DNA of 64,000 nt from an uncultured Mycoplasmatota bacterium (lineage in GTDB: Bacteria; Bacillota_I; Bacilli_A; RF39; UBA660): positions 14,410 through 78,409 of the forward strand of contig CAOKET010000002.1 in the NCBI GenBank assembly GCA_948467605.1, in the 5' to 3' direction. The notes beneath the pieces were generated by a model. That model saw only the letters and a program-made list of their open reading frames with translations, did no database searches and was not told the origin of the DNA. A program made the position numbers and the translations under genes. Below are positions 25,601 through 61,568 of this stretch, in pieces. Positions within the stretch are counted from its first letter, which is position 1, and each line of letters opens with the position of its first letter.

Positions 25601-26053
25601 TAAATCCATTACTTGTTGTGGTGAAGATGAAAATAATATTGCTACCCCTGTTTGTCTTACTGCATATATGTCTTGGTGATCACAAAAAATTGATAGGGCA
25701 TGGGTTGCGATTGATCTTGCCGCTACATTTATTACTCCTGGTAACATTTCCCCTGCTATTTTATAAAGATTTGGAATCATTAATAGCAATCCTTGGCTTG
25801 CAGTATAAGTACTTGATAAAACACCTGATTGAAGTGATCCATGTACTAATGCAATTGCACCTGCTTCACTTTGCATTTCTATTACTTTTACTTTATCATT
25901 AAAAAAATTAACCTCATTATTACCAGCCCATTTATCAATATGTTCAGCCATAGTAGATGCGGGTGTTATAGGATATATTCCAGCAAGTTCTGTCATCTTA
26001 TATGATATATATGCACATGCATGATTTCCATCCATAATACGGTATTTATTCAT
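22646..26053 (-). CDS. nifJ: Pyruvate:ferredoxin (flavodoxin) oxidoreductase
   Basis: 1135 aa. N-terminal PFOR domain I (YPITPAS). Internal 2x[4Fe-4S] ferredoxin motifs (CIQCNQCSFVCPH, CTGCTHCVQTCP). C-terminal TPP-binding GGDGW. Confidence 0.95.
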   Translation of the reverse strand: MNKYRIMDGNHACAYISYKMTELAGIYPITPASTMAEHIDKWAGNNEVNFFNDKVKVIEMQSEAGAIALVHGSLQSGVLSSTYTASQGLLLMIPNLYKIAGEMLPGVINVAARSIATHALSIFCDHQDIYAVRQTGVAILFSSSPQQVMDLTPVSYLSALKGSLPFINAFDGFRTSHELQKIKMIDLDKIKDLIDEKSLNLFRQKALIPGKKITRGTAQNDDVYFQNLEVRNKYYDNLPDIVEEYMDNINKITGEDYHIFNYYGDKYATKVIIAMGSVCETIKETIDYLNKTGEKVGLVEVHLYRPFSTRHLIKVLPESVKQIAVLDRTKESGSSGEPLYLDVVNTFKDKKIEIIGGRYGISSKDTSPRDIKAVYDFLDSKERFNNFTVGIVDDVTNRSINVDKNFNIPHNSIEMLIYGYGSDGMVSASKNIMKIIGEKTPKFVQGYFQYDSKKSGGVTRCHLRISDNKIHSTYYVNKAKLIVCTKASYLSQFDMLDYIEDNGIFILNSSLSDEECLSLMPSKVKEIIKKKNIRFYIADAYSLSSSNGLGNKISTIMETIILKYLNQIDEKEYISSIKEKVYEEFFNKGEEIVKANNRVIDQALNCIREVKDIVLTSKDNNKQYTDDIIIDSINKMKGNDLPVSAFIDHEDGTYQGGNTVFEKRKISEYVPVWIKENCIQCNQCSFVCPHAVIRPFLLDEEENKNVKDDSLKAIGPDLKDYNFMIGVSYNDCTGCTHCVQTCPGMKGKKALEMVNIHELKQKEQDDYLFNKVKQKDIEKRNNVKYSQFQPPKFKYPGSCSGCGETPYLKILTQLFGNNLIIANATGCSSIYGASLPSTPYSVPWINSLFEDNAEVGYGIYTAHKIMRQRVKKIIEEKLKNNSIKDSSIYKEYIDNFEDMEITNKLSKDLKTFKELESYKEYLIKPTVWCIGGDGWAYDIGYAGIDHILESNENINILVLDTEVYSNTGGQSSKSSRTGSVASFTETGKKTVKKDLAKIAMSHENVFVAQVSLGYNKESVVNIFEEAAKHDGPSIIIAYAPCISHGIKGGMKNALEHQKLAGECGYLPIFKYNPSENKLKLYNKEPDYEKYEEFLNLETRYSMLKLVNQDNAKELLEKNKEIAMKRHNIYKEMSQK

Positions 26054-26174
26054 TTATCTTATTCCTCCTTATATACTAGTATAGTATATAAGATTATTTT
26101 TATCAAAGATTTTTAATAAAATAATTGATAATAATTTTACTATATGATATATTTTTATTATAGGAGGTGCTTAT

Positions 26175-26945
26175 ATGGTTAATAAAATGTCAAATAATTT
26201 TTCTGAGTTTTTACAACATACATCGTTTGATTACTTCTCTAAAGAAAAAGATGAAATACTATCACTTATAAAAGATGAATTAGATGGCATTCTTAAGCAA
26301 ATAAGTATGCTCATTAAATCTTATAATTCTACTGTTGAACTTAAAAAAATTGAGAAAAAGTTTAATAGTATTCTTGATGGAACAAATCCATATATTGATA
26401 ATTTAATTAGAAATAAATATAATTTGTGTTATCAGGAATTATTCTCAAAAATAATAAGAGATGGGGATTTTGCTTTAAAGAGTAATAGATATGAGGCTAG
26501 TTCTGAAAGGCTTAGTGTACTTGAATCAACCCTTGCTAACTATAAATGTAATATAGATAAATCTAAAGAGGCTATTACTAATAAAATAGAAGAAAAAAAC
26601 AGTAATTTTGTTAAAGATTTTATAATTAATAATATATTAGCATGCCTAGAAGATACATTTTATGATATACCATGTAAACAAAATGATGATGCTTATAATG
26701 AAATAGAAAAATACTTAAATAAAACTACTGATATAATTATAGGTGGATTACAGGATATATGTGTGTCTAGTATGGATGATATGAATAATGATGTTTTATC
26801 TTATTTGGAGAATAAAATTAAATTTGAAAAAGGTTATACTAATAACTTAACATTATCTCAACTTTTACAGGCTAAAGAGGCGTTTATTGGTAGTAATACG
26901 AAAAGGCCACAAAAAAAAGGAAATAGGAAAAATATTGCCGCTTAA
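26175..26945 (+). CDS. Hypothetical soluble protein (256 aa), acidic and helical
   Basis: Strong RBS AGGAGG upstream. No recognised motif. Confidence 0.5.
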   Translation: MVNKMSNNFSEFLQHTSFDYFSKEKDEILSLIKDELDGILKQISMLIKSYNSTVELKKIEKKFNSILDGTNPYIDNLIRNKYNLCYQELFSKIIRDGDFALKSNRYEASSERLSVLESTLANYKCNIDKSKEAITNKIEEKNSNFVKDFIINNILACLEDTFYDIPCKQNDDAYNEIEKYLNKTTDIIIGGLQDICVSSMDDMNNDVLSYLENKIKFEKGYTNNLTLSQLLQAKEAFIGSNTKRPQKKGNRKNIAA

Positions 26946-27025
26946 ATAACATTTTTTAATGTTATTTTTATTATTCTTTATTTTTATAGTTAAATGGAGT
27001 ATAATTTTATTAGGAGGAAAATTTT

Positions 27026-29200
27026 ATGAATAGAAATTTATTACGTACTATTGGTATAATAAATATTATATTTGGTATAATTTTTACGCTTACTATTATT
27101 GGTTCAATTATTGGGATTCCATTAATAGTTAGTGGAGCTTTATATTTAGAATATGCATCTTTAGATGATGGAGTTCTTATTGCTAAGAGAAATTCTATAA
27201 AGGCATGGTCTATTATATTTATTTTTATTAATTTTATATCTGCTATTCTTAGTTTTTTAGCACTTAATGATATAGATAAATATATTAAAAAAGATGATTA
27301 TGATCCTAGTAGTTTTAGATTAAATTTCTTACTTAATTTAGGTATGTCTTTAATATTACTATCTGGTATTATACTTGCTAGTACATCTTGGAATTCTATA
27401 TTGGATTATGTTAAAACTATATTATTATTTTTATTTGGTATTATATTTATATTTCTTTCATTTTTATTATCAAAAAGAAAGAGTTTAAAATATACTTCTA
27501 ATACTTATTGGTTTATTGGTTGTATTATTATTGCTATTAGTTTTTATTCTTGTGGATATTTTGAAATATTTGGTTCTTATTTTTCATTAAATGGATTAGG
27601 TAGAAATTTATTTATATCTATTATTTCTTTGATAAGTACTATAATATTTTTCTTATCACATAGAAAATTTAATTCTAAATTCTTATTAGTTACTTCATTT
27701 ATTAGTTTTTTTGTTACCTTATCATATTTAATATCTTATTTTACAAATAATATACAAGTATTCTCAATAATATTTATGTTAGTATTAACTATATTTAATA
27801 TAATCAATGTTAATACTAAGGATTCTAAAAAATATTTTATGAATTTATGTAATATAATTACATGTATATATTTTATATTTATTTTTATATTAAACATCGC
27901 TACATCTGATACAATACTTATGCTTATAAATAATATTTTATATGTTTCAAATTTATTTATATTGTCTTTTAAAACTAAGTTAAAAAGGTTTAATATATTT
28001 ATTATTATTGCACTTCCAATACTTATATTACTTTATTGTTATAAATTCTTATCATTTAATGTAGCAATAATAAGTAGTTCTATAGCAATATTATTATTTT
28101 ATGGTATATCTTATATATTTAAATCTAAGAATTATATACTTGTATCTGGTATTATAATATCAAATATACTATTATTTATTAATTATATAATTTCTTATTT
28201 TAGTGATTACTTCTATTTCCCTCTTATTATATCTATTATGTTAATTCTTATTTATATTCCACTTATTTTTATAAATAACTATATGAATAAGTATTTGGGC
28301 GAAATTATTGTTCAACCAATTAAAGCACTACTTTTATGTATTTCATCTAGTTTTCTTTTAATTAATTGTGGATGGTCTTTTGGATTTATGTCTTATATAG
28401 TAGTTTGTGCTAATATATTATTTATATTTAGTTTAATAAACAGGAATAGTATATTAAGAAATATTTATTTTATATTATCTTATTCACTATTATTCATGTG
28501 TTTAATACCAATAAATATTAATATAGTATTTCGTATAAATATAGTTGTTATGTGGATACTTGGTTACTTAATAATAACTATGTTCGATAAGAATAATTGG
28601 CTAGGTCCAGTTAACTATATATTTTATTTATTTAGCTTAATAACTTTGTTCTCGCTATTTAAATATTTAAGTTTTTCTATCCAACTTTCTTTATTAAATA
28701 TACTTATATATTTATTCCTTGCTTATTTATTTAGAAATAATAGATTTAAATGTTTTACTGCACTTGTATTTCTCTTATTACCATATTACTCTTTAATAAA
28801 TATATTAGATATAAGTTCTTCTGTACTTCATATTCTTAGATTTGCACCTTACATTTTATATATATATTTATTTACATATACTATTACTAGAAAATATAAT
28901 ACTTTAAATATTATATTAGAAATCGTTGTTAGTTTACTAGTATTTATTATTCTAGTTTTTGAAGGTTCAATTGAAGTATCCATATTTGTATTGATATGTA
29001 GTATAATTATGATTATATACGATGCATTGTTTAAACATATTTCTTTGTTTATTAATGGTCTAGTAGCATTAATCCTAAATATTTTGATAAATATATTTAA
29101 GTATTGGTCTGTTATTCCAGCATGGTTATATTTACTTGTAGGCGGGATTGCTTTGATAACAATTATTACTATACAGGAGTTAAGAAAAAATAAAAATTAG
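27026..29200 (+). CDS. Very large polytopic membrane protein (724 aa, about 20 predicted TM helices), unknown function
   Basis: RBS AGGAGG. Almost entirely hydrophobic helices with short loops. Confidence 0.5.
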   Translation: MNRNLLRTIGIINIIFGIIFTLTIIGSIIGIPLIVSGALYLEYASLDDGVLIAKRNSIKAWSIIFIFINFISAILSFLALNDIDKYIKKDDYDPSSFRLNFLLNLGMSLILLSGIILASTSWNSILDYVKTILLFLFGIIFIFLSFLLSKRKSLKYTSNTYWFIGCIIIAISFYSCGYFEIFGSYFSLNGLGRNLFISIISLISTIIFFLSHRKFNSKFLLVTSFISFFVTLSYLISYFTNNIQVFSIIFMLVLTIFNIINVNTKDSKKYFMNLCNIITCIYFIFIFILNIATSDTILMLINNILYVSNLFILSFKTKLKRFNIFIIIALPILILLYCYKFLSFNVAIISSSIAILLFYGISYIFKSKNYILVSGIIISNILLFINYIISYFSDYFYFPLIISIMLILIYIPLIFINNYMNKYLGEIIVQPIKALLLCISSSFLLINCGWSFGFMSYIVVCANILFIFSLINRNSILRNIYFILSYSLLFMCLIPININIVFRINIVVMWILGYLIITMFDKNNWLGPVNYIFYLFSLITLFSLFKYLSFSIQLSLLNILIYLFLAYLFRNNRFKCFTALVFLLLPYYSLINILDISSSVLHILRFAPYILYIYLFTYTITRKYNTLNIILEIVVSLLVFIILVFEGSIEVSIFVLICSIIMIIYDALFKHISLFINGLVALILNILINIFKYWSVIPAWLYLLVGGIALITIITIQELRKNKN

Positions 29201-30960
29201 TTATTTTTTCTTTTTTCTTCTTTTATGCCAAATGACAGGCAAAATATAAATGGATATATATTTATAAATGGTAAACAGTATCTACATATTGATTTTGGTA
29301 AACTAATAAATAGTAAAGCATACCAAAACAATATAAATAATATAGGTAATAAAAGGTTATATTTTCTTTTGTTTATGAGTATTAATACTGAAAAAAGTAG
29401 CATAAATAAAGGAAAGGCACCTCTTGTTCTTAAATCAAATAATACACTTTTTAATCCAAAATTCACAATATTGTCTACAATACTATTTAATTTAGTTTCT
29501 TTATACATAATAGTAGTTTGTTTTAAACAATAGTTATATGCATTGGGTTCCCATGAATATTTATATAGATAAGTAAAATACTCATTATTGTCATTTTCTA
29601 TTTTCCATAAAATATTACTCAAATCAAATAAAGATCTCATATAAAATATTGGTTTTTTTATAAACAAACTTAAGTTAATACCAATTAGACCACTATAATT
29701 AAATGTTTTACTTTTTCCTCCAGATAAATAAAATAATTTTTCATCATTTATTCTTGCTAATGCATCTCCATCATTCTTTTTAAAACTAGTTGCCATATAT
29801 TCTATAGGTAAATATTGTTCTAAATATTCTTTTTCAATGTCACTAAACTCATATCCAGAATTAGCAAAAGCACCTATTTGATAAATTGGAACAGTATATG
29901 GAACGCTCTTAAAATATGTATCAGAATGCAAAATATTAAATCCAATGTAGTTTATAATAGAATATGTACTTACAAAACCTATTACTACAATTCCAATATA
30001 TATCAATTCAAAGTATTGCTTTTTCTTTAAAATAATTATGAATAAACTTAGGAATATGAGTATTAATAAGTAAAGTGTTCCATGTCTAAATAAAATCATA
30101 ATTATTGAAAATATTACCATATTTATAACTATTTTTTTTGTAAATTTTTTTATTGTAAAGTACTCTACCATTGTTAAAATAAAAATACAAAAGCCTAGTG
30201 AAAATAATGTATCTTTTAAAATATACCTTAATTGATCAAATCCTACTATTGTAAATATATTTATACAAAGGAATAAAATCAAAATATTTTTATTTTTTGT
30301 TTGTCGTTCTAAAATTTCAAGAGAATAATTACAAAAGTAAAGATAGAGTATAAAATTTAATATAATTACTAAATATGTATTATTAAATACAATTTTACAA
30401 AAATGAATTAGCATTCCAAACCCAAACGTATGCCAATTGCTCCACCAGCCATCATTACCTAAGTGCCATATGTCTGGAAAATCAACATCATAAAAACCAG
30501 TTGATGTACTTGCAATAAAAAGCAAACTAATAATAGTAATTATTGACATTATTATTACTCTAATTTTTTTATTGTTAGTACTTTCTTTAAATTCATATGA
30601 AAAAATTGATACAAATATATAGAATAAAGATAAAAATAAAGATGATAAAAAAATAGTTTTAAACATTATATTAAATAAAGTTATGTTGTTTGAGAATTTA
30701 TTTAAGCATGAAGTGATAGGTAACATTATAAAAAATAATACACATAATGATATTGACATTACTACTATTTTTCTATTTAATTTTATATTCATAATAAAAG
30801 ACCTTTTTATAACTAAAAAAAGTTCAAATATAGCAATAATAAGTAATGGCAAAAATATTAATTCATTAGATATATTATGTAAATTAAATAAACAAAAAAC
30901 GATTGAAATAACATTAATTATTAATAATATATAATAAAAACTTTTTTTCACTACTATCAC
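29197..30960 (-). CDS. Polytopic membrane protein with a C-terminal extracytoplasmic domain (GT-C/YfhO-like topology; function unknown)
   Basis: 587 aa. Multiple N-terminal TM helices, a roughly 170-aa soluble segment, then further TM helices. It converges on the preceding gene with a 4-bp overlap. Confidence 0.4.
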   Translation of the reverse strand: MIVVKKSFYYILLIINVISIVFCLFNLHNISNELIFLPLLIIAIFELFLVIKRSFIMNIKLNRKIVVMSISLCVLFFIMLPITSCLNKFSNNITLFNIMFKTIFLSSLFLSLFYIFVSIFSYEFKESTNNKKIRVIIMSIITIISLLFIASTSTGFYDVDFPDIWHLGNDGWWSNWHTFGFGMLIHFCKIVFNNTYLVIILNFILYLYFCNYSLEILERQTKNKNILILFLCINIFTIVGFDQLRYILKDTLFSLGFCIFILTMVEYFTIKKFTKKIVINMVIFSIIMILFRHGTLYLLILIFLSLFIIILKKKQYFELIYIGIVVIGFVSTYSIINYIGFNILHSDTYFKSVPYTVPIYQIGAFANSGYEFSDIEKEYLEQYLPIEYMATSFKKNDGDALARINDEKLFYLSGGKSKTFNYSGLIGINLSLFIKKPIFYMRSLFDLSNILWKIENDNNEYFTYLYKYSWEPNAYNYCLKQTTIMYKETKLNSIVDNIVNFGLKSVLFDLRTRGAFPLFMLLFSVLILINKRKYNLLLPILFILFWYALLFISLPKSICRYCLPFINIYPFIFCLSFGIKEEKRKNN

Positions 30961-31026
30961 CTATTAGTATTATATAAAATTAATTATTAGTAGTAAATCA
31001 ATTTTTGTTTATTATATCAATTATTT

Positions 31027-31722
31027 ATGTTAATATTATTATATGGTGATTTTATGAATATTAATAAAAAAATAAAGGCAGTATTAGTTATATTACTATA
31101 TTTCTTATATACGTCTGGTTTATATATGATACCTATATATATATCTGGTGTATCTGTTGCTGTATTTGATAAATTTTGGTTGTGTGTGTATTTTTTTACT
31201 GCAGATATTCTTCTTATGTGTATTCTTGGTATTATATATAATAAGGAAGTTATAAATGGGTTTAAGTCTCTTACACTTCCAAAAATAGAATTTGGCGTTA
31301 AGGTATGGATTATTGGGATGATTATAATGGGTATTAGTAATATGCTTATATCTAATTTTAGTCCTGTTACTGTTGCTGGAAATGAAGAAAGTGTAAAAAA
31401 TGCTTTATCAATATTACCTATTTATATGGCATTTTCTACTGTACTTTATGCTCCTTTTGTCGAAGAAATTGTATTTAGACAAACTCTAAGAGATATATTT
31501 AAAAATAATACACTTTTTATAATTTGTGCTGGATTATTATTTGGTGGTATACATATAATGGACTTTTATACCTCATATTATGATTTATTATTTGTAATAC
31601 CATATGGCGCGCTTGGTGTTTGTTTTGCATACATATATTCTAAGACTAATAATTTAACTATATCAATGATATTACACGCTATTCATAATGGGCTTTTAGT
31701 TGTTTTATTCTTCTTATTTTAG
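31027..31722 (+). CDS. CPBP-family intramembrane metalloprotease (CAAX protease / Abi bacteriocin self-immunity family)
   Basis: Motif 1 EExxxR (PFVEEIVFRQ), motif 2 FxxxH (LLFGGIHIM), motif 3 HxxxN (HAIHNGL). The start may be the internal MNINKK. Confidence 0.75.
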   Translation: MLILLYGDFMNINKKIKAVLVILLYFLYTSGLYMIPIYISGVSVAVFDKFWLCVYFFTADILLMCILGIIYNKEVINGFKSLTLPKIEFGVKVWIIGMIIMGISNMLISNFSPVTVAGNEESVKNALSILPIYMAFSTVLYAPFVEEIVFRQTLRDIFKNNTLFIICAGLLFGGIHIMDFYTSYYDLLFVIPYGALGVCFAYIYSKTNNLTISMILHAIHNGLLVVLFFLF

Positions 31723-31731
31723 GAGGTATTA

Positions 31732-32577
31732 ATGAAAAAGATTATTATTACAATAGTTATTACAATTATATTAATAACTAGTATATTATTATGGAGCAGA
31801 TATATAAGTACTAGTGGTTTAATTGTAAAAGAATATAAAATAGAAAGTAATAAATTACCTCAAAGTTTTCATGGGTTAAAGTTAGTTCATTTTTCTGACT
31901 TACATTATGGTAGAACAGTTCATGAGAAAGAATTAAAGGATATTGTAAATAAGATTAACTATTTAAAACCTGATATTGTAGTTTTTACTGGTGATTTAAT
32001 TGATAATGACACGGTTACTACTCCTGAGGTTAGTAATATATTAAAAAAATACTTAAGTATGATTGATGTTAAAATAGATAAATACGCTGTTGTTGGAAAT
32101 CATGACTATAAGAATAATTACTATACTAGTATTATAGAAGAAAGTGGTTTTATATTACTTAATAATAATTATGATATTGTATATAACGGAAATTATAAGC
32201 CTATATTTATTGGTGGTATTGGAAATTATACTTATGGTAAAAGTGATATTTCTTCTACTATGAGTTATTTCAATAATGAGAATAATGATTTATATAAAAT
32301 AATTCTAGTACATGAACCTGATATATTAGATGAATTAACTAATTATAATATAGATTTAGTACTTGCAGGACATTCTCATAATGGACAAGTAAGATTACCT
32401 TTTATTGGTGTGGTAGTTAAACCAGTTTTTGCTGAAAAATATTATGATGAATATTATAAAGTTAAAAATACTAATTTATACATATCAAGTGGTATTGGTA
32501 CTTCTACTATAAACTTTAGATTTCTTAATAAACCATCTATTAATTTTTATAGATTTGTAAAAACAAAAGTGGAATAA
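31732..32577 (+). CDS. Calcineurin-like metallophosphoesterase (YkuE-like), membrane-anchored
   Basis: GDLID, GNHD, GHSHNGQ metal-binding motifs. N-terminal TM. RBS AGGAGG. Confidence 0.8.
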   Translation: MKKIIITIVITIILITSILLWSRYISTSGLIVKEYKIESNKLPQSFHGLKLVHFSDLHYGRTVHEKELKDIVNKINYLKPDIVVFTGDLIDNDTVTTPEVSNILKKYLSMIDVKIDKYAVVGNHDYKNNYYTSIIEESGFILLNNNYDIVYNGNYKPIFIGGIGNYTYGKSDISSTMSYFNNENNDLYKIILVHEPDILDELTNYNIDLVLAGHSHNGQVRLPFIGVVVKPVFAEKYYDEYYKVKNTNLYISSGIGTSTINFRFLNKPSINFYRFVKTKVE

Positions 32578-46835: not shown

Positions 46836-49183
46836 CTAATTATTTTGTAAAGCACGGTCTAATTTTGTTTTAAATTCATACCTTTTATTTATATTAAATA
46901 CTGATATTTGTTTAGATGAAAACTCTAATTGTTCTGGTATACTTTTTCTATCTAATTTATAAACTTTTACTTTTTCAAAAAACTCGTTTATAATATTATA
47001 TATTTTATTACTATTATCAATTAAATCTTCTGTTGAAATATTTCTTAACATACAGAATAAGTAATAGTAATTAGAAAGAGGAATATATGCATAGTTGCTC
47101 ATTGCAACTAAATCTCTAAGAGTTTTGTTTAATTTTGTTAAGAATAACTCTATTTTTTCATAAAAGTAAAGTGTTTCATCGATAGAATCTAAATAATTTT
47201 GTCTTTCTTTTTTAATTATATCTATATCTTTATACATGTATTTATCTTTTATTTCATTAAATTCTTTTAACCATTTACTTATTCTTTTACTGTCATAGTT
47301 TGAATAGTTTATACTTTCTAGATCTTTTGTATAAAATAAATATGATAATTTTAAAGTCGTTACTGCTGCAGTGTTATTTTTATTTTTCTTTGGTAAAATA
47401 ATTCCCATATACTTACTTATTTTTTCTTCTAAATATTTTATAATTTTAGCATCCATAGTAAGACTCCACATTCTATATGTATCTTCTTTTATAATAGACT
47501 TGTTTCTATTTATTCTTACATATTGATCTACTGCACTAAAACTACTATTTTCACTTTGACTAGTTGTTGATATTTTTAATTTAGTATTCATTATTTTATT
47601 AATGTAATCTTTAGAAATCTCATTTTCTTTTTTATTTGATTCATATTTTAGTCCATTAAGTTCAGTTAATATTCTTAATCCTTTTAAGGTATATCCATTT
47701 TTATTTGAATATTCTTCCTCACCTAATTCGTTCATAAATGGTTGTTGTAAAAATCCAAGCAAGCTTAAAATTCGCTGTTGGCCATCTACAATCTCGGTTA
47801 TCATGTTACCATTTTCAAACCTATCACACATTAATATATATGGTATTTTTATTCCCAGTAATATACTTTCTATTATTCTAGATGCTAGAACAGTATTCAT
47901 TACCTCTAATCTTTGATAATATGGTCTTACATTGTGACTACCTGTTTTTACTTCTACTAATAAATCAGATATTTTCATTTCCTTTGTAGTAAAACTAAAG
48001 TGTTTTCTGTGGAGTTCTTCTATACTGTTTATAATATCTATATTATTATTTATACTAACATCTTGTCTAAAATAATTACTCATATCTATGCCATACTCTT
48101 TTTCATAGTATTTTGCTACTACATAATATTTATTATATATATCCTTTTTATAGTGTGCTCTATTTGGATTAAAGTTCTTTTGCGTTTCTTCAATCTCACC
48201 AAAATATTCTAAGTATTTCATAAAATCAAACTTAAATGGATCACTAAGTTTATCTTTCCTTATAATAGATATCAACCAATATGTTGCATCTAAGAATGGT
48301 TTTGAATGAAGAATTTCATAATTATTCCATTTTTGGGTATTTACTAAATTAGTATATATTTGATTAACATTTATTATAAAATCTTGATAAATAGTATCCT
48401 TATTAACATTAATTATATTTGGAAGATAATTTTGTTCTATTCTAGTTTCAATATTATATGTCGAACAGAAATTATACATATTTGAGTAAGTAGATGCGAT
48501 TAACAATCTACAGTTTAATAAAATATTATCAATCTTATTACGTTTTTTCTTTCCATTAAAAAATCTTAATGCCTCTAATTCTTTCATAAATTCTTCATCA
48601 TTTTCAATTTTCTGTTTTATTTTACTAGTAATTTTATCCGATGCGAATTGTGCTTTTTGCATTTCTTCTATTAATAGTCTAAGTCCTGTATTATATATTA
48701 CATATAAATATTTTTCTACTTCTATTTCTTCGTCTTCATTTAAAATACTTTTACCCATTTTTACGTTATTATAACTATAGTCTAATACCTTAATAGGATC
48801 ACATTTAGAAAAGTATTGTTTTTCTATATCTGATAAAGTACTATATTTTTTACCAGATAGGAATTTAAGTTGCTTCAAACCTCTTTCATCTAATATAAGT
48901 TCATCATTATAAAAACTTTTCATTGCTAAAAATCTGTTATAGCCATCTACTATTATAGTATGATCGTTGTTTTTAAATCTTATTATTGGTTGCATAGAAC
49001 AATGTAAAAATATACTTTCTATATAACTAGTCTGTACTATTCTATTCCATTTTTTATCATTCTCAAATGGTCTTTCTATTAAATTTATTGTTTCATTTCC
49101 ACAGATTGAACACGGTGTTACATCGTGTTCATCACATATTAGATTATTTGCGATTAACGCTCTTAAATCAATTTCATCATTCA
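46836..49183 (-). CDS. Large protein with tandem DUF262 (ParB/Srx-like NTPase) domains and no recognisable nuclease domain
   Basis: Second domain canonical: RPYYQRLEVMNT...ITEIVDGQQRILSL (DGQQR). First domain degenerate: W...IESIFLHCSMQPIIRF...IIVDGYNRFLAM. N-terminal CxxC...CxxC. No HNH/DUF1524 motif seen. The start is MNDEID, with RBS GGGGGA. Confidence 0.65.
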
Positions 49184-49244
49184 TTAAAATCCCCCATTTC
49201 TTTAAAATGATTTTATATGTTATCATATTTGCTGGAGGTGATAA

Positions 49245-50969: not shown

Positions 50970-51707
50970 TTATTCTCTAAATAATTCATTTTGCATTTTA
51001 TCTGGATTTTCTAAGAACATTTTATATACTTGATATATTTCTGTATCTTTATAGTTTATTTCATTAAAATTATTATTTAAATCGTATATTATACTATTCC
51101 TGTATGCGATTAAAATTGGAGAATGTGTTGCAATTATGAACTGGCTTCCATTTTTAACTAAATTATCTATTAAACTAAGCAAAGTCATTTGTCTTATTGG
51201 TGATAATGCTGCTTCTGGTTCATCTAAGATATAAAGTCCGTTATCAGAAAATCTATTTTGAACTACTTTTATAAATGCTTCTCCATGTGAACACTTATGT
51301 AAATCCCCTCCATAATATCTATATATTGGTAATGATTCTTCACTAATTTTTTCTATTTCAGTTGCCACATTGTAAAAACTTTCTGCTCGTAAAAAATACT
51401 TAGTTTGTGGTACTCCTAGTTTACTTACTTTTAGATATTTATATAAATCGGAATGAGTATTATTTGTTTTAAAATTAAAGTTTTGTGTTCCCCCTTCTGG
51501 ATTTAATCCACAAGAAATTGCTAGTGCTTCTATAAATGTTGACTTACCTATACCATTTTCACCTATTAAGAATGTAACTGGTGAAGTTAATCTTAACTCA
51601 TCAAAATTTTTAATTATTTCTATATTAAATGGATATATATCAAAATCTTCTATCTTTTCTTTATCAAGTCTTATATTATTTACAAATAAACTATTATCAC
51701 GTTTCAT
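50970..51707 (-). CDS. Small stand-alone ABC-type (AAA_21-like) ATPase
   Basis: Walker A GENGIGKST, Walker B LYILDEPEAALSP, H-loop IIATHSP. 245 aa, no transmembrane partner. Confidence 0.6.
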   Translation of the reverse strand: MKRDNSLFVNNIRLDKEKIEDFDIYPFNIEIIKNFDELRLTSPVTFLIGENGIGKSTFIEALAISCGLNPEGGTQNFNFKTNNTHSDLYKYLKVSKLGVPQTKYFLRAESFYNVATEIEKISEESLPIYRYYGGDLHKCSHGEAFIKVVQNRFSDNGLYILDEPEAALSPIRQMTLLSLIDNLVKNGSQFIIATHSPILIAYRNSIIYDLNNNFNEINYKDTEIYQVYKMFLENPDKMQNELFRE

Positions 51708-56188: not shown

Positions 56189-57202
56189 TTATAATTTCTT
56201 TATACCTAATTCAGCTATAATAATTGTTTCAAAATTATTTACATATTGATTAAATTCTTTAAAGGTTAATCCACTAGGTATACTTGGTATTTCAGTTAAT
56301 TCTCTAATATCTGTTTTTTCGTGTCTTTCTATCTCTTTTTTAATCGCATCTTCAATTGAATTATATTTATGTATACCCTTATTATCACTATTAGAATGTT
56401 CAAAATGATACCAGTTATCTTGATAGCGAAATAGTACAAAACAATGCATTTTTACTTCTTTATCAAAGTTTTCTGTTGTTTCATATCTTCTAAAACAATA
56501 CATTTTATTTTCTAATCCAATTTTATCAAAGAAACTTTTTATTATTGCTGCTTGTTCAATACATGTGCCTACTTTATATTCTAGTGATTCATCAATTGAA
56601 CTAGTTCTATAGCTTTCTCTAAAGCCATCTAAAGTATTTACGTGTTTTTCTCCTGATTTATCAATCCATCCATAACTAATATTCATATCCATATAATTCA
56701 TAAGTTCATTCTGATTTTTAATATCACTAAAGTTTGTTTTTATATATGGATTTGCTTTTGCATAAAAATCATCACCAATCCATTTGAAACCACAATAAGA
56801 TGAGGCATTCAAACTTGCTTTATTATCGTCTGCAATCTTTAACCTAACACTTTCTACTTGGGGATATTTTCTAAAAATATATTCACTTACTTCATTAAGC
56901 AACATCTTACCATATGATTTTCCTCTTTTATCTTTATCAACAGCATATCTTAAATAAACACACCTTTCAGTTTCATTAAACCCGCCAACTCCTACATATC
57001 CTATAAGATTATTATCATGTGTAACTAAAAAACTATGCCTAAAAAACTCATTATTTGGATTTCTTAACAAACCATCTGTTAATCCCTGAAATCTAGATGT
57101 TATTGTTTCATCTTTTATTAGTTTTTTTAAGAACTCTAACATTTCTTTATTATTTTTATCAAATGTATTTAATGATAAACTTCCTAGTTTTGCATATTCC
57201 AT
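56189..57202 (-). CDS. GNAT N-acetyltransferase domain fused to a C-terminal transglutaminase-like domain
   Basis: N-terminus: LIGYVGVG...RYAVDKDKRGKSYGKMLL (GNAT motif A). C-terminus: GTCIEQAAII...H...D resembles the transglutaminase-like cysteine protease core. Confidence 0.45.
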   Translation of the reverse strand: MEYAKLGSLSLNTFDKNNKEMLEFLKKLIKDETITSRFQGLTDGLLRNPNNEFFRHSFLVTHDNNLIGYVGVGGFNETERCVYLRYAVDKDKRGKSYGKMLLNEVSEYIFRKYPQVESVRLKIADDNKASLNASSYCGFKWIGDDFYAKANPYIKTNFSDIKNQNELMNYMDMNISYGWIDKSGEKHVNTLDGFRESYRTSSIDESLEYKVGTCIEQAAIIKSFFDKIGLENKMYCFRRYETTENFDKEVKMHCFVLFRYQDNWYHFEHSNSDNKGIHKYNSIEDAIKKEIERHEKTDIRELTEIPSIPSGLTFKEFNQYVNNFETIIIAELGIKKL

Positions 57203-57336: not shown

Positions 57337-58524
57337 ATGAAAAAGGTAAGACAAGAGAATAAAATTTTAATAATGTTATCATTTTTTAGTATCTCAATTG
57401 GATTGTGGGAAAACTTTAGACAACTTTGGTTGCAAAATAATAACTTTTCTGCAACTGATATTAGTAATATATTTAGTATAGGAACTTTAGTTAGTGTAAT
57501 AGGTATAGTTTTTGTTAGTAAGTTTGTTAAGTTAAATAAACTTAAAACATTTATAGGCATTTCTTTAGTTATAAAACTTATAAATTTATTAGGATTATTT
57601 AATTTAAACAATACTGGTAATAGCAATTTAATAAATATTTTAGTAATAATAGATATACTTACTAGTTATTTAGTTACAACTAGTATATATCCTTTAATAA
57701 CAACAATTATTAAAAATAATAAAATATATAGCAAAAGAAAATTAACAGAGTATCTTTTTAAAGACATAGGAATTTTAATTGGTGGTTTATTAATTGGTAA
57801 AAATATTATAGGCATTTTAGTGGATTATAATATTTGTCTATTTATTTCCGCTATATTTTTAATGTTTGCAGTTGCATTTATATTTAATATAACAACTTGT
57901 GTTTTAGAAGAGAAAAAAGTTGAGGAAAAAGTGTCTATAGTTAAATATGTATTTAAAAGTAAATTACAAAAACTATATATGGGATATACTTTTATCGGCA
58001 GTATGGCTATGAAAACAGCGCTTGGTTTAAAAATGCTTACTCTTACAAATTATTTTAAATTTACTGATAGTACTGCAACTCATTATTTACTTATAGTTGG
58101 TTTATTTGCGGATATTATTGGTATACTTGCATTAAAATATTTTACTCCAAAGAATGATTATGTAACTATTACTATTAAATTTGGTATAAGATTTACCTTA
58201 TATTTAATTGCATTTCTATCAAATAATATGATTATAACAATAACTGCTATTACGTGGTCTTTATTAATTTCAACATCTTATGAAAATATTTGTGATGGTT
58301 ATTATATAAATTCTGTTCCTACTAATTATCAATTATCATTTACTAATTTTAGATACGTTGTTAAATATTTAGGAGAGGCATTAGGAGTATTTCTTTGTGG
58401 AATAATGTATGAAATGGGTATTAGGTATATGCTTGGATTATCAGCATTTTTTATGATATTTCAAATATTTATATCATACTACTTAATATATATAAGAAAT
58501 AAGGAGAAAATTAAAAATGAGTAG
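57337..58524 (+). CDS. MFS-like polytopic membrane transporter
   Basis: 395 aa, about 12 TM helices. No diagnostic motif. Confidence 0.5.
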   Translation: MKKVRQENKILIMLSFFSISIGLWENFRQLWLQNNNFSATDISNIFSIGTLVSVIGIVFVSKFVKLNKLKTFIGISLVIKLINLLGLFNLNNTGNSNLINILVIIDILTSYLVTTSIYPLITTIIKNNKIYSKRKLTEYLFKDIGILIGGLLIGKNIIGILVDYNICLFISAIFLMFAVAFIFNITTCVLEEKKVEEKVSIVKYVFKSKLQKLYMGYTFIGSMAMKTALGLKMLTLTNYFKFTDSTATHYLLIVGLFADIIGILALKYFTPKNDYVTITIKFGIRFTLYLIAFLSNNMIITITAITWSLLISTSYENICDGYYINSVPTNYQLSFTNFRYVVKYLGEALGVFLCGIMYEMGIRYMLGLSAFFMIFQIFISYYLIYIRNKEKIKNE

Positions 58525-59050
58525 AATAACATTAATAACGTATTTTGATGATAAAAATTTAAGTATAGTTAATAATTATATAAAAGATATATCTATTAAT
58601 ATGTGCAAAGTACCATATGGTATAGACGATAATAACAGATATTCAATCGATAATTTACCATATCACTTTACAATATTCGCAACTGATAAAGAAAACCAAG
58701 ATAAGCTTTTAAATATTTGTAAAAGTATAAATATCAGTAAAATAAAACTAAAAATTAATGATGTAAAAATAATGAATGCAAAAAATAATAGTTTTGTTTT
58801 ATATTTTTCAATTGAGGAAAATAGTGATTTAAAGTACTTGCAAAGATGTTTTTATGAAAAAATATCTGGTGGGAAATATAATCCAGATACTTTTACATTT
58901 CATATGACATTACATATTGATAAGGATGAAAAATTAATCTATGAATTATTAAAAATAATAAAACAAGATTTTAAACCGTTTTATCTTGAATTTGATAAAC
59001 TAGTATTATATAACTATCCAGGCAATATGATAAAAGTAATTGATTTATAA
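58517..59050 (+). CDS. 2H phosphoesterase superfamily protein (LigT / 2'-5' RNA ligase-like)
   Basis: Two H-x-T/S-x motifs: YHFTIFA and FHMTLHI. Its start overlaps the end of the transporter gene by 8 nt. Confidence 0.6.
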   Translation: MSRITLITYFDDKNLSIVNNYIKDISINMCKVPYGIDDNNRYSIDNLPYHFTIFATDKENQDKLLNICKSINISKIKLKINDVKIMNAKNNSFVLYFSIEENSDLKYLQRCFYEKISGGKYNPDTFTFHMTLHIDKDEKLIYELLKIIKQDFKPFYLEFDKLVLYNYPGNMIKVIDL

Positions 59051-59689: not shown

Positions 59690-60238
59690 CTAAACTTCAT
59701 CCTTTGCTAAATTTTCTAAAATTTCAACATTATCTAATTTTAATAAATAGTTACTTGGTAATGAAATCTTTGATTTTTGTAGTCCGCTACCACAAATAAT
59801 TCTTTCTACTTCTAGAACTTTAGGATCAATAAATAATTTCCATTCTTTAGGTAGACCAATAGGATTTATGCTGCCATATTCCATTTTTGTTTCTTTTAAT
59901 ACATAATCTAATGGTGCAACTGATACCATTCGTGAATTTGTATATTTCCTTACGGTTGAAGACATATTATATCTATATCCAGTAGGTACTAGTAGTGCAA
60001 CATAACTTATATTTTCTCCTCTTCTACATTCACATATTAGACAATTCGCACCTGTTTTAGGGTCAATATTATAGTGTTCACATAGTTTAATACCATCCAT
60101 ATATTCTGGATTAATTTCAGCAACTAAAATATTATCTTTTTCTTCTTCATTAAATAAACTATCAATACAATTATACGTATGTTCTGATATCAAACCTTTG
60201 TTATCCATTATTTTTTCAAATTTTAAATTATTTTCCAT
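59690..60238 (-). CDS. YbaK/ProX-like aminoacyl-tRNA deacylase domain protein
   Basis: ...YVALLVPTGYRYNMSSTVRKYTNSRMVSVAPLDYVLKETKMEYGSINPIGLP...ICGSG fits the YbaK domain pattern (conserved K, GxxxP, sGG). Confidence 0.5.
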   Translation of the reverse strand: MENNLKFEKIMDNKGLISEHTYNCIDSLFNEEEKDNILVAEINPEYMDGIKLCEHYNIDPKTGANCLICECRRGENISYVALLVPTGYRYNMSSTVRKYTNSRMVSVAPLDYVLKETKMEYGSINPIGLPKEWKLFIDPKVLEVERIICGSGLQKSKISLPSNYLLKLDNVEILENLAKDEV

Positions 60239-60246
60239 ATTCTCTC

Positions 60247-61359
60247 CTATATTTTTCTTACTTTAACTTGATATAAAACTTTTGGTTTTGAATACTCTTC
60301 TTCATTTCTAGTCATGGATGTTTCATGTGATTCAATATTTCCTATAATTCCAAAATATTTGTTTATATCCTCTTCATCAAAAAATCTTTTAGTATAATCT
60401 CCTTCAAAATAGAAATTCTTTTCTAATTGTTCTCCAATACCTGCCCCAAAATTAAAATCATTTACTGATGCAACTCTAGCTAATAAAACACCATTATTTT
60501 TTAAAATTCTTTTTAGCTCTTCCATAATATGTATAGTAGTTTTATTATCAAAATAATGTAGAGATAAGTCTGCTACTACTAGTGAAAAACTTTCATCCTT
60601 AAAGGGAAACTTATCAAGCATGTCTAAATACTTAGTTTTACTATTTGAGATATTTTTATTAATGCTTTCTAAAGCATCTTTTGAAAAATCACAAGATAAT
60701 ACATTAAATCCTCGTTCAATAAGATATAGTGTATCAGCACCAATTCCACATCCCAAATCTAAAATTTCTTCATTTTTATTTTCATTTAATATATCTTTGT
60801 AATCATCTAACCAATTATCATATACTGGTACTCCTGCTCTTCTTTTTGACCAACTATCCCACATATTTACATAACCACAATTGCTCTTTATAACTTCTTT
60901 TTTTATAACTTTATGATTACTGTTTGATGTAATTTTTATTTTAAAATTACCATGTTTAAAATATTTTTGATATTCTGGTTTTAAAATTTCAGTACATGGA
61001 AATCTTTTATCCTGTTTTATCAAATTACTAATTTCTATCCACATTGATTCATTTTCATTAAAACAATTAGGATTACCATTAAACTTATCACACATAAAAA
61101 CATCAAAATCAAAAATCATTTCAGGGTATTCTATAATTAAATTACCAATATATTTTTGATTGATTATTTCAATTCCTGTTTCTTCTATACATTCTCTAAT
61201 AGAAGCATCAATATTGGTCTCTCCATCTTCGATTTTTCCACCAGGTATATCATAAAATCCATTATTTTTTTCAGTTAAATACTTGATAACAAGTACTTTA
61301 TTATCTTGCATGATAAAAGTTCTAACAGCTTTTCTTATTGGTTTATCCACCCATGTCAC
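60247..61359 (-). CDS. NUDIX hydrolase fused to a class I SAM-dependent methyltransferase
   Basis: Nudix box GGKIEDGETNIDASIRECIEETG at the N-terminus. MTase motif I ILDLGCGIGADTLYL and motif post-I/II in the C-terminal half. 370 aa. Confidence 0.65.
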   Translation of the reverse strand: MTWVDKPIRKAVRTFIMQDNKVLVIKYLTEKNNGFYDIPGGKIEDGETNIDASIRECIEETGIEIINQKYIGNLIIEYPEMIFDFDVFMCDKFNGNPNCFNENESMWIEISNLIKQDKRFPCTEILKPEYQKYFKHGNFKIKITSNSNHKVIKKEVIKSNCGYVNMWDSWSKRRAGVPVYDNWLDDYKDILNENKNEEILDLGCGIGADTLYLIERGFNVLSCDFSKDALESINKNISNSKTKYLDMLDKFPFKDESFSLVVADLSLHYFDNKTTIHIMEELKRILKNNGVLLARVASVNDFNFGAGIGEQLEKNFYFEGDYTKRFFDEEDINKYFGIIGNIESHETSMTRNEEEYSKPKVLYQVKVRKI

Positions 61360-61568
61360 CTCAATATAAGTTTATCATATTTTAATGATACTTATATGGT
61401 TATTTTGTAAAATTTATGTATAGAATATGATATTTATTAATTCATATTTATATAATTGATGAATATATAAAACAGATATACAATAATTTTTAAGTTTATA
61501 GTATAATTATTTTATAGAATCAAGTTTTTTTATAACAAAATATATTAAAGAAGAGGATTAGTGATATT

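Follow-up and report, generated by a model that had tools for sequence, protein, structure and literature searches.

Does a single gene in this uncultured Mycoplasmatota bacterium encode both a Nudix hydrolase and a methyltransferase, and if so, what might such an enzyme do? The 64,000-nucleotide stretch of DNA analysed here (the window) carries an open reading frame that the original prediction described as a 370-residue polypeptide with a complete Nudix box and a complete methyltransferase motif I. Processing of capped RNA 5′ ends was among the roles suggested for it. We asked whether the fusion is genuine, how it arose, and which of several possible functions its sequence, predicted structure and genomic surroundings favor.

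A Nudix domain joined to a methyltransferase domain

The open reading frame called by the ORF finder spans positions 60247..61359 of the minus strand, begins with GTG and encodes 370 aa. However, the GTG at 61359 falls within a Shine-Dalgarno sequence, an identical database protein (P0001, 100% identity to the window fusion) has 367 aa, and relatives of the fusion carry ATG at the position of a second GTG at 61350. The latter is therefore the likely start, such that the frame exists as originally described whereas the protein is probably 367 aa long. The 5′ region of the gene is ~95% conserved in one related locus (L027) and is conserved in another (L012) as well. The features of the locus are as follows.

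60247..61350, minus strand: fusion gene, 367 codons plus TAG stop
61356..61362, minus strand: Shine-Dalgarno sequence GAGGTGA, separated by 5 nt from the likely start codon (GTG at 61350)
60889..61350, minus strand: Nudix domain, aa 4-157 (370-aa numbering)
61171..61239, minus strand: Nudix box GKIEDGETNIDASIRECIEETGI, aa 41-63, read from the sequence
60865..60888, minus strand: junction or hinge KSNCGYVN, placed by alignment with stand-alone relatives and by low pLDDT
60250..60882, minus strand: class I SAM-dependent methyltransferase domain, TehB-like and apparently of small-molecule type, aa 160-370
60736..60768, minus strand: methyltransferase motif I EILDLGCGIGA (SAM-binding loop), read from the sequence
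60688-60690, minus strand: post-I acidic residue D224, read from the sequence
60550-60573, minus strand: methyltransferase motif IV ADLSLHYF, read from the sequence
59690..60238, minus strand: tRNA_edit gene of YbaK/ProX type, 182 aa, downstream of the fusion

A frameshift or assembly error that joined two genes is ruled out, because at least 10 contigs, drawn from independent samples, encode the same 367-aa protein, and fusions of the same architecture occur at 72-79% identity, forming ~18 clusters at 90% identity. More fused copies are present in metagenomes (L036 and L037). An AlphaFold model of the protein contains two well-folded domains (mean pLDDT 81, pTM 0.60) and a hinge between them, where pLDDT falls below 50 (residues 160-165). 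Both motif sets are intact as first reported: the Nudix box, motif I, D224 and motif IV are all present.

The N-terminal half belongs to the Nudix superfamily. The Pfam NUDIX model (PF00293) matches aa 9-86 with an E value of 4.7e-10 and 40.0 bits, above the gathering score of 21.1. All residues of the box GX5EX7REUXEEXGU are in place (G41, E47, R55, E56, E59, E60, G62 and I63), and the predicted fold is a complete MutT/MTH1-like one that includes the C-terminal beta-hairpin. The top PDB sequence match is MutT (4v14, E 3.5e-12), followed by MTH1 (E ~4e-8), with weaker matches to BsRppH (4jzu, E 1.7e-6) and to the Nudix core of NudC (E ~3e-5). The half is nonetheless only ~20% identical to MutT and MTH1 (NUDT1), carries an attached methyltransferase that they lack, and reaches 51.7 bits against a cutoff of 97.9 for the NCBIfam MutT equivalog (TIGR00586). 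The RppH/BsRppH (YtkD) model TIGR02705, which aligns only with aa 27-91, likewise stays far under its cutoff (44.4 of 154.4 bits). Of the hallmarks of NudC, the SQPWPFPxS motif downstream of the Nudix box is absent, and the protein has no N-terminal extension in the place of the zinc-binding domain. In the HMMER alignment, three recognition residues of MTH1 are replaced (N33 by D37, D119 by C122 and D120 by T123), and the stacking aromatic residue is kept, with F120 aligned to W117. Specificity for 8-oxo-dGTP or 2-oxo-dATP should therefore not be assumed. We conclude that the Nudix half is most readily classified, on its sequence and modeled fold, as a nucleotide pyrophosphohydrolase of the MutT/MTH1 type, and we assign it no base specificity.

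The C-terminal half is a class I SAM-dependent methyltransferase by the hallmarks of that class (a Rossmann-like fold, motif I of the form (E/D)xGxGxG, an acidic residue at the end of beta-2, and motif IV), with Pfam matches above gathering to Methyltransf_25 (E 7e-16) and Methyltransf_11 (E 1.4e-15) at aa 199-293. The Pfam TehB domain matches across aa 196-344 (35.6 against a gathering score of 20.4), but the two TehB equivalogs fail (NF008405 and TIGR00477; 38.5 bits against 218 and 32.2 against 219.5), and thus this half is TehB-like rather than a TehB orthologue. Its NCBIfam matches, headed by an MduS-like methyltransferase domain, DVU_1556, CpaM, BioC and TehB, all lie far under their cutoffs, and a match to Pfam TPMT is weak (E 0.0017, under the gathering score). 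By sequence, this half is nearest to small-molecule enzymes of the TehB, BioC and UbiE-like families. Structural matches comprise Ecm18, Rv0560c (a heterocyclic-toxin methyltransferase), TmtA, TehB, and halide and thiol methyltransferases, all at 12-21% identity. This half differs from TehB, Rv0560c, Ecm18, TmtA and the uncharacterised structure 2p8j not only by this distance but also by its own N-terminal segment, GY.xMW.NWSKRR..VPVYDNWL, which is specific to the family. The fusion protein lacks the (D/N)PP(Y/F) motif that would be expected of a DNA N6-adenine methyltransferase, and the compact methyltransferase half has no nucleic-acid-binding domain and shows nothing else that points to nucleic-acid binding. 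A PADLOC match to mad2 of the MADS system was also rejected as an identification, since it covers 134 of 492 profile positions and only the SAM-binding core. These comparisons point to a likeness to xenobiotic or small-molecule methyltransferases.

Taken with the Nudix matches, the character of this half bears on the originally proposed action at RNA ends, in which the Nudix domain would strip a NAD or Np4N cap or a 5′ pyrophosphate and the methyltransferase would then methylate the exposed RNA end. Nothing specific speaks for this scheme. The MutT/MTH1 matches are stronger than those to RppH or NudC in both sequence and fold, the protein lacks an RNA-binding domain, the pI is acidic in the Nudix half (5.8) and in the methyltransferase half (5.0), and the methyltransferase is nearest to small-molecule enzymes and stands alone as a ~215-aa protein in most lineages. 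We consider a role in cap processing highly improbable.

Origin, selection and loss of the Nudix half

Stand-alone relatives of each half define the junction closely. Nudix relatives of 146-166 aa (55-74% identical) end at approximately residue 157, and methyltransferase relatives of ~213-216 aa (75-83% identical) begin at approximately residue 160, at GY.xMW.NWSKRR; in the alignment, the two are joined end to end with no extra linker. Such unlinked versions of each half are far commoner than the fusion. The stand-alone relatives are labelled as “Mollicutes/Bacilli/Firmicutes bacterium” metagenome-assembled genomes, and several of the contigs come from human gut metagenomes. The host DNA of the fusion is AT-rich, with ~25% GC.

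We searched 1.84 billion protein representatives, clustered at 50% identity, exhaustively with HMMER. The fused clade forms a single cluster (P0003), and the remaining top 150 matches are stand-alone methyltransferases, stand-alone Nudix proteins or proteins of other architecture. A scan of one genome per GTDB species recovered no fused relative, but only stand-alone methyltransferases of at most 44% identity. Together, the single cluster and the lack of a fused relative in the species scan indicate that the fusion is young and confined to one lineage.

The original prediction took two separate genes in relatives as a finding that would count against it. The one close relative that looks split (L012) is indeed called as a Nudix gene of 166 aa followed by a methyltransferase gene of 169 aa, but we rejected it as an ancestral two-gene state. 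It aligns without gaps to the window gene at 89% DNA identity, and is the same gene split by a single TGG>TGA change at the W170 codon, just past the junction; the “methyltransferase” call begins at a TTG within motif I. Reading TGA as tryptophan (genetic code 4) was rejected as well, because the following gene has a premature stop at a glutamate position. The locus thus reflects decay or sequencing error. Relatives thus give no sign of an ancestral split, and separate genes are seen only in the trivial sense that unlinked stand-alone halves are common.

Both halves are maintained by selection. Among 19 fused sequences, the Nudix residues G41, E47, R55, E59 and G62 are invariant, and E56 and E60 are each altered in one. 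The methyltransferase residue D224 and motif IV ADLSLHYF are invariant in all 19, and motif I is kept apart from single substitutions at C204 and I206. Pairwise Nei-Gojobori estimates from six gene sequences put dN/dS at 0.09-0.18 in the methyltransferase half and at 0.16-0.35 in the Nudix half. Purifying selection therefore acts on each of them, with less strength on the Nudix half.

Some alleles have nevertheless lost the Nudix domain. Three loci (L027-L029) are syntenic with the window (sugar transporter, the gene itself, tRNA_edit, a LigT-like gene and a 395-aa membrane protein) and match its 5′ region up to GAGGTG at ~95% identity. They retain the first four codons (M-N-K-P), after which only 47 nt stand where the window has 474 nt of Nudix-coding sequence. 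The Nudix domain has thus been deleted in frame, and the product of this allele has 225 aa (P0020). In two other assemblies (L030 and L031), the codon of E56 in the Nudix box has become a stop (GAA>TAA), so that the gene is divided into a stub of 54 aa and an open reading frame of 291 aa in which the methyltransferase is retained. Because the Nudix half can be deleted or inactivated without methyltransferase loss, the two activities are evidently not obligatorily coupled, and the Nudix half is clearly expendable to the methyltransferase.

These losses bring up a plain account of the gene: two head-to-tail accessory genes might have merged through loss of a stop codon, each keeping a separate substrate and neither gaining from the union. 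The linkerless junction with its flexible hinge, the confinement of the whole clade to one cluster at 50% identity, and the deletion (L027) or interruption (L030) of the Nudix half beside an intact methyltransferase are all consistent with such an accident, as are the varied fusion partners of both families described below. Against it stand the purifying selection that still acts on the Nudix half, and the recurrence of Nudix-methyltransferase pairing in independent lineages, with other Nudix subtypes or another methyltransferase, in both orders and as adjacent genes. An accidental origin without benefit is a real but somewhat doubtful possibility.

Recurrence of the pairing and genomic neighborhoods

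The pairing of Nudix and methyltransferase domains is found outside the fused clade in several forms.

P0265, 379 aa: a Nudix domain orthologous to that of the window (~50% identity, sharing its MNKPVRKA start) joined to a different class I methyltransferase
P0284, 367 aa: the reversed order, in which a methyltransferase of the window type precedes the Nudix domain at the C terminus
L088, a marine contig of 55% GC: a different Nudix subtype fused to the same methyltransferase family
L077: a Nudix gene and a methyltransferase gene side by side, 27 nt apart
L035: a Nudix gene and a methyltransferase gene side by side, 72 nt apart
L101: a Nudix gene and a methyltransferase gene side by side, 193 nt apart
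L045: a methyltransferase gene between two Nudix genes

The architecture had first been noted as one not known from characterised bacterial proteins. A literature search agrees with this, in that it returned no paper describing a Nudix-methyltransferase fusion. The architecture is not unique in public data, however, as the independent fusions and gene pairs (P0265, P0284, L088, L077 and L035) demonstrate. The fused proteins themselves are present in public assemblies, where they are without a name. Because similar combinations exist elsewhere, the fusion does not constitute a new category. Architectures of this kind have probably been catalogued already, and some proteins may bear the RefSeq name [quoted passage not shown].

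We tallied co-directional neighbors within 250 nt at 62 non-redundant metagenomic loci of the methyltransferase family. Nudix genes account for four of 76 such neighbors (three upstream and one downstream), against ~0.5 expected by a rough estimate in which Nudix genes are taken as 0.5-1% of all genes. By guilt-by-association, this provides moderate evidence of a functional link. The evidence is weakened by the other fusion partners of both families: the window methyltransferase family is also fused to GNAT (P0356), ASCH (P0255), nitroreductase (P0323) and APH (P0109) domains. In the Nudix family, the partner can be GNAT (P0341) or a second Nudix domain (P0377). The choice of partners may simply follow from how closely small accessory genes are packed.

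In the window, the tRNA_edit gene begins 8 nt past the fusion stop codon and its ribosome-binding site overlaps that stop, an arrangement from which we judge that the two genes are probably co-transcribed. The pairing with tRNA_edit also occurs in L001-L004 and, with the Nudix-less allele, in L027-L029. A scan for promoters and terminators, which is weak in AT-rich DNA, gave fewer promoter-like matches than in shuffled sequences and 0 terminators. The fusion lies in a patch of small accessory genes (GNAT, a LigT-like 2H phosphoesterase, a membrane protein and a Peptidase_C69-like protein), and the chromosome around this patch is ordinary, with genes for DHDPS, IspF, cysteine desulfurase and thioredoxin.

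The neighbors of the fusion vary between lineages. Recurring near fused loci are UDG/YunG, NTPase_I-T, Ham1, LCM, SDR and GNAT genes; the house-cleaning genes seen at relatives are not present in the window. At three loci (L024, L025 and L036), the fusion is preceded, at a distance of 22-31 nt, by a gene for a large serine recombinase of 578 aa, and in L024 a tRNA gene directly precedes the recombinase gene. The recombinase and the tRNA gene suggest that the fusion can travel as cargo of an integrative element. One stand-alone methyltransferase (P0063) is found on 107 contigs within a cassette that encodes, in order, a 293-aa protein of no known kind, the methyltransferase, a serine hydrolase, an SDR protein, and then GNAT or a second SDR protein. 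Downstream of this cassette, L005-L007 carry genes for NikA-like, TnpV and large serine recombinase proteins; L005 and L006 have another large serine recombinase gene upstream of it.

At three fused loci (L022, L023 and L026), the fusion is followed after 4-5 nt by a bona fide pnuC, which scores 100.7 bits with TIGR01528 (cutoff 42.45). Fragments of PnuC are also present in L030 and, next to a stand-alone methyltransferase, in L013. It is conceivable, then, that the enzyme acts in pyridine-nucleotide or nicotinamide riboside (NR) salvage, with NAD(H), ADP-ribose or a dinucleotide derived from NR as the Nudix substrate and a pyridine product that the methyltransferase would methylate. LigT-like 2H phosphoesterase genes, which recur nearby, would fit such a pathway. 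The window gene, however, has no adjoining pnuC; the NudC motif SQPWPFP is absent and the NudC match (E ~3e-5) is far behind that to MutT (3.5e-12); a search upstream of six loci gave no match to an NAD riboswitch or other regulatory RNA at E values up to 1; and the methyltransferase is unrelated to the NNMT family beyond the class I fold. We regard a salvage function as quite improbable.

Other neighbors, among which Type IV restriction enzymes often directly adjoin genes of the methyltransferase family, raise the prospect of a link to phage defense. ResIII/DEAD helicase genes appear five times upstream and three times downstream in the tally, with several overlapping the methyltransferase start by 1 nt, and those at L070 and L079 encode SauUSI-type Type IV methyl-directed restriction enzymes (PADLOC, E ~1e-102). 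In a record from a phage collection (L035), a SauUSI-type enzyme (E 5e-178) flanks the Nudix/methyltransferase gene pair. The tally further includes three PLD and three to four GNAT genes, and single occurrences of McrBC, Vsr, NERD, ParE, dUTPase, UDG/YunG and APH. GmrSD-like genes are present near the fusion in L026 and at 46.8-49.2 kb of the window. In addition, PADLOC recognizes in the Nudix half its single-gene defense candidate PDC-S07 (E 1e-18), with a match that spans most of the profile (10-114 of 135 positions).

The enzyme might accordingly be imagined as an accessory to restriction that alters or depletes the nucleotide pool, for example modified dNTPs, beside modification-dependent restriction enzymes, and the neighboring Type IV, McrBC, Vsr, NERD, ParE and GmrSD-like genes would be in keeping with this. 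PDC-S07, however, is a computational candidate for which the literature yielded no functional test, and it is a stand-alone Nudix protein of ~130 aa, unlike the fusion. The match to mad2, a predicted N6 DNA methyltransferase, reflects the shared SAM-binding core, and the fusion lacks (D/N)PP(Y/F). Ten neighbors scanned in the window gave no match to a defense model other than a cysteine desulfurase of housekeeping type, and the window locus is not a recognizable defense island. A viral-contig scan found the methyltransferase family to be essentially absent, with two distant matches, and plasmid and phage collections contain only methyltransferases of ~27% identity, for example on Enterococcus plasmids. 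A defensive function is therefore unlikely.

A tentative role in clearing aberrant nucleotides

Our favored, though tentative, explanation is that the fusion is a bifunctional accessory enzyme that clears non-canonical or toxic nucleobases or nucleotides from the cellular pool. A gene for a MutT/MTH1-type Nudix protein and one for a TehB-like small-molecule methyltransferase were fused recently, end to end, giving two catalytic modules on a short flexible hinge, each with its own active site. According to the proposal, the Nudix module would take the activated compound, a di- or triphosphate, down to its monophosphate, whereas the methyltransferase module would methylate the base, the nucleoside or a related heterocycle. 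Methylation would be the core activity, and the Nudix domain an optional add-on or enhancer. The architecture, the intact motifs, the purifying selection, the recent origin, the repeated Nudix loss and the recurrent pairing are shown, and from these we infer the substrate class, any coupling of the two reactions and their order. Genes for nucleotide house-cleaning or for the handling of nucleosides (PnuC, Ham1, NTPase_I-T, UDG/YunG and dUTPase) abound near relatives, as this proposal would lead one to expect. The proposal is weakened by the lack of conservation at the MTH1 base-recognition residues, by the low identity of the structural matches to the methyltransferase (12-21%) and by the variability of the neighbors. 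Our confidence in the structural and evolutionary description of the fusion, by comparison, is high.

The logic of a pool-clearing enzyme draws on a precedent among Nudix fusions. In Tnr3, which joins a Nudix domain to thiamin pyrophosphokinase, and in NadM-Nudix, two known bifunctional fusions (Table 4 of PMC4921024), a Nudix domain for “pre-emptive clean-up” is tethered to an enzyme of the same pathway. The fusion in the window differs in that its partner is a methyltransferase with no assigned substrate or pathway.

The closest functional analogy comes from human cells. There, NUDT15, an MTH1-like Nudix enzyme, and TPMT, a small-molecule methyltransferase, both act on one pool of toxic purine analogues, the thiopurines. 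These are separate proteins and the parallel is one of function only; nothing in the fusion is specific to thiopurines or to selenium compounds. A second analogy may be drawn with MTH1 combined with a detoxifying methyltransferase such as Rv0560c or TehB.

A broader form of the proposal would treat a Nudix domain plus a TehB-like methyltransferase as a recurrent mobile module, fused or encoded by neighboring genes, that often travels with modification-dependent (Type IV) restriction enzymes and polices the pool of modified or toxic nucleotides. Such a module might, for example, keep modified bases out of host DNA or inactivate a nucleoside-analogue toxin. Although we think this generalization improbable, it would, if true, represent an uncharacterised class of nucleotide-pool defense or detoxification.

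Because it is young, restricted to one narrow clade and repeatedly deprived of its Nudix half, the fusion is of modest interest as a curiosity and does not amount to a new kind of system. If its union is incidental, it illustrates how readily small accessory genes fuse and split in compact, AT-rich genomes. If the two halves instead share a metabolite, the fusion would serve as a Rosetta-stone clue that ties the methyltransferase family to nucleotide or nucleobase chemistry. That family is very abundant, mobile and unannotated, and is found on hundreds of contigs in gut Bacillota; the fusion, with the recurrent pairing behind it, could guide the discovery of its substrate.

Genes surrounding the fusion in the window and in related loci

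Near the fusion of a Nudix domain to a class I SAM methyltransferase (MTase), two genes with an 8-nt overlap encode a multi-pass membrane protein, for which no family match was found, and a LigT-like enzyme. This pair is kept beside the fusion or MTase gene in the four window-like loci (L001-L004) and in L027, a syntenic allele in which the Nudix half is deleted in frame. At two other loci carrying the fusion (L012 and L036), a LigT-like gene lies directly 3' of it. The pair and other features of the window are as follows.

57337-59050, plus strand: genes for the 395-aa membrane protein and the LigT-like 2H phosphoesterase
56189-57202, minus strand: 337-aa protein with an N-terminal GNAT domain (aa 20-144)
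50970-51707, minus strand: 245-aa AAA_15/AAA_21 ATPase
46836-49226, minus strand: 796-aa protein with a GmrSD_N domain
26001-32000: region of altered composition

The C-terminal ~190 aa of the GNAT protein yielded no family match, and this protein is possibly another fusion of small accessory domains. The GmrSD_N protein may belong to the Type IV restriction enzymes, and the ATPase is possibly truncated; both genes are surrounded by housekeeping genes. Within 26001-32000, GC content falls to 0.21, the sign of the GC skew is reversed and several genes lie on the plus strand, the remaining window being almost wholly minus-strand. An inserted island or a locally inverted segment may account for these features.

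Two premature stop codons occur inside 1.5 kb of L012 (256-1900), one a TGG to TGA change in the fusion gene and the other at a Glu position of the LigT-like gene. This locus, which comes from a very fragmented assembly, is either decaying or poorly sequenced.

Recombinase genes beside fused and stand-alone MTases

In two fused lineages, a gene for a 578-aa large serine recombinase is followed after 22-31 nt by the start of the Nudix-MTase gene, and in one of them (L024) a tRNA gene is located immediately upstream of the recombinase gene. From this arrangement, the fusion appears to be the first gene in the cargo of an integrative element. A stand-alone MTase, P0063, is present on 107 contigs and resides in a conserved cassette.

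L024, 2547-6104: recombinase and Nudix-MTase genes
L036, 4242-7113: recombinase and Nudix-MTase genes
L005, 5107-8487 (also L006 and L007): P0063 cassette

The cassette order in L005 and L006 is a 293-aa protein, P0063, a serine hydrolase, an SDR and a GNAT, with a second SDR in place of the GNAT in L007. In each of the three loci, genes for a NikA-like protein, TnpV and a large serine recombinase come next; L005 and L006 have another recombinase gene upstream of the cassette. The cassette is probably a transposon-like mobile element.

Restriction-enzyme neighbors and fusion partners of the MTase family

Genes for large PLD/helicase proteins are frequent immediate neighbors of the MTase family.

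L035, 93-2900; L070, 6618-9116; L079, 6758-9424: SauUSI-type Type IV methyl-directed restriction enzymes (PADLOC; E down to 5e-178)
L053, 989-3478; L068, 3491-5980: SauUSI-type model match confined to the helicase part (PADLOC)

The helicase stop codon and the MTase start overlap by 1 nt in several loci. Here a small-molecule-type MTase is tightly coupled to a modification-dependent nuclease. Lineages other than that of the Nudix fusion carry MTase-family proteins joined to further domains.

P0109, 542 aa: APH phosphotransferase
P0255, 314 aa: ASCH
P0323, 474 aa: nitroreductase
P0356, 414 aa: GNAT

Partner domains of these kinds are consistent with enzymes that modify small molecules, drugs or modified nucleosides.
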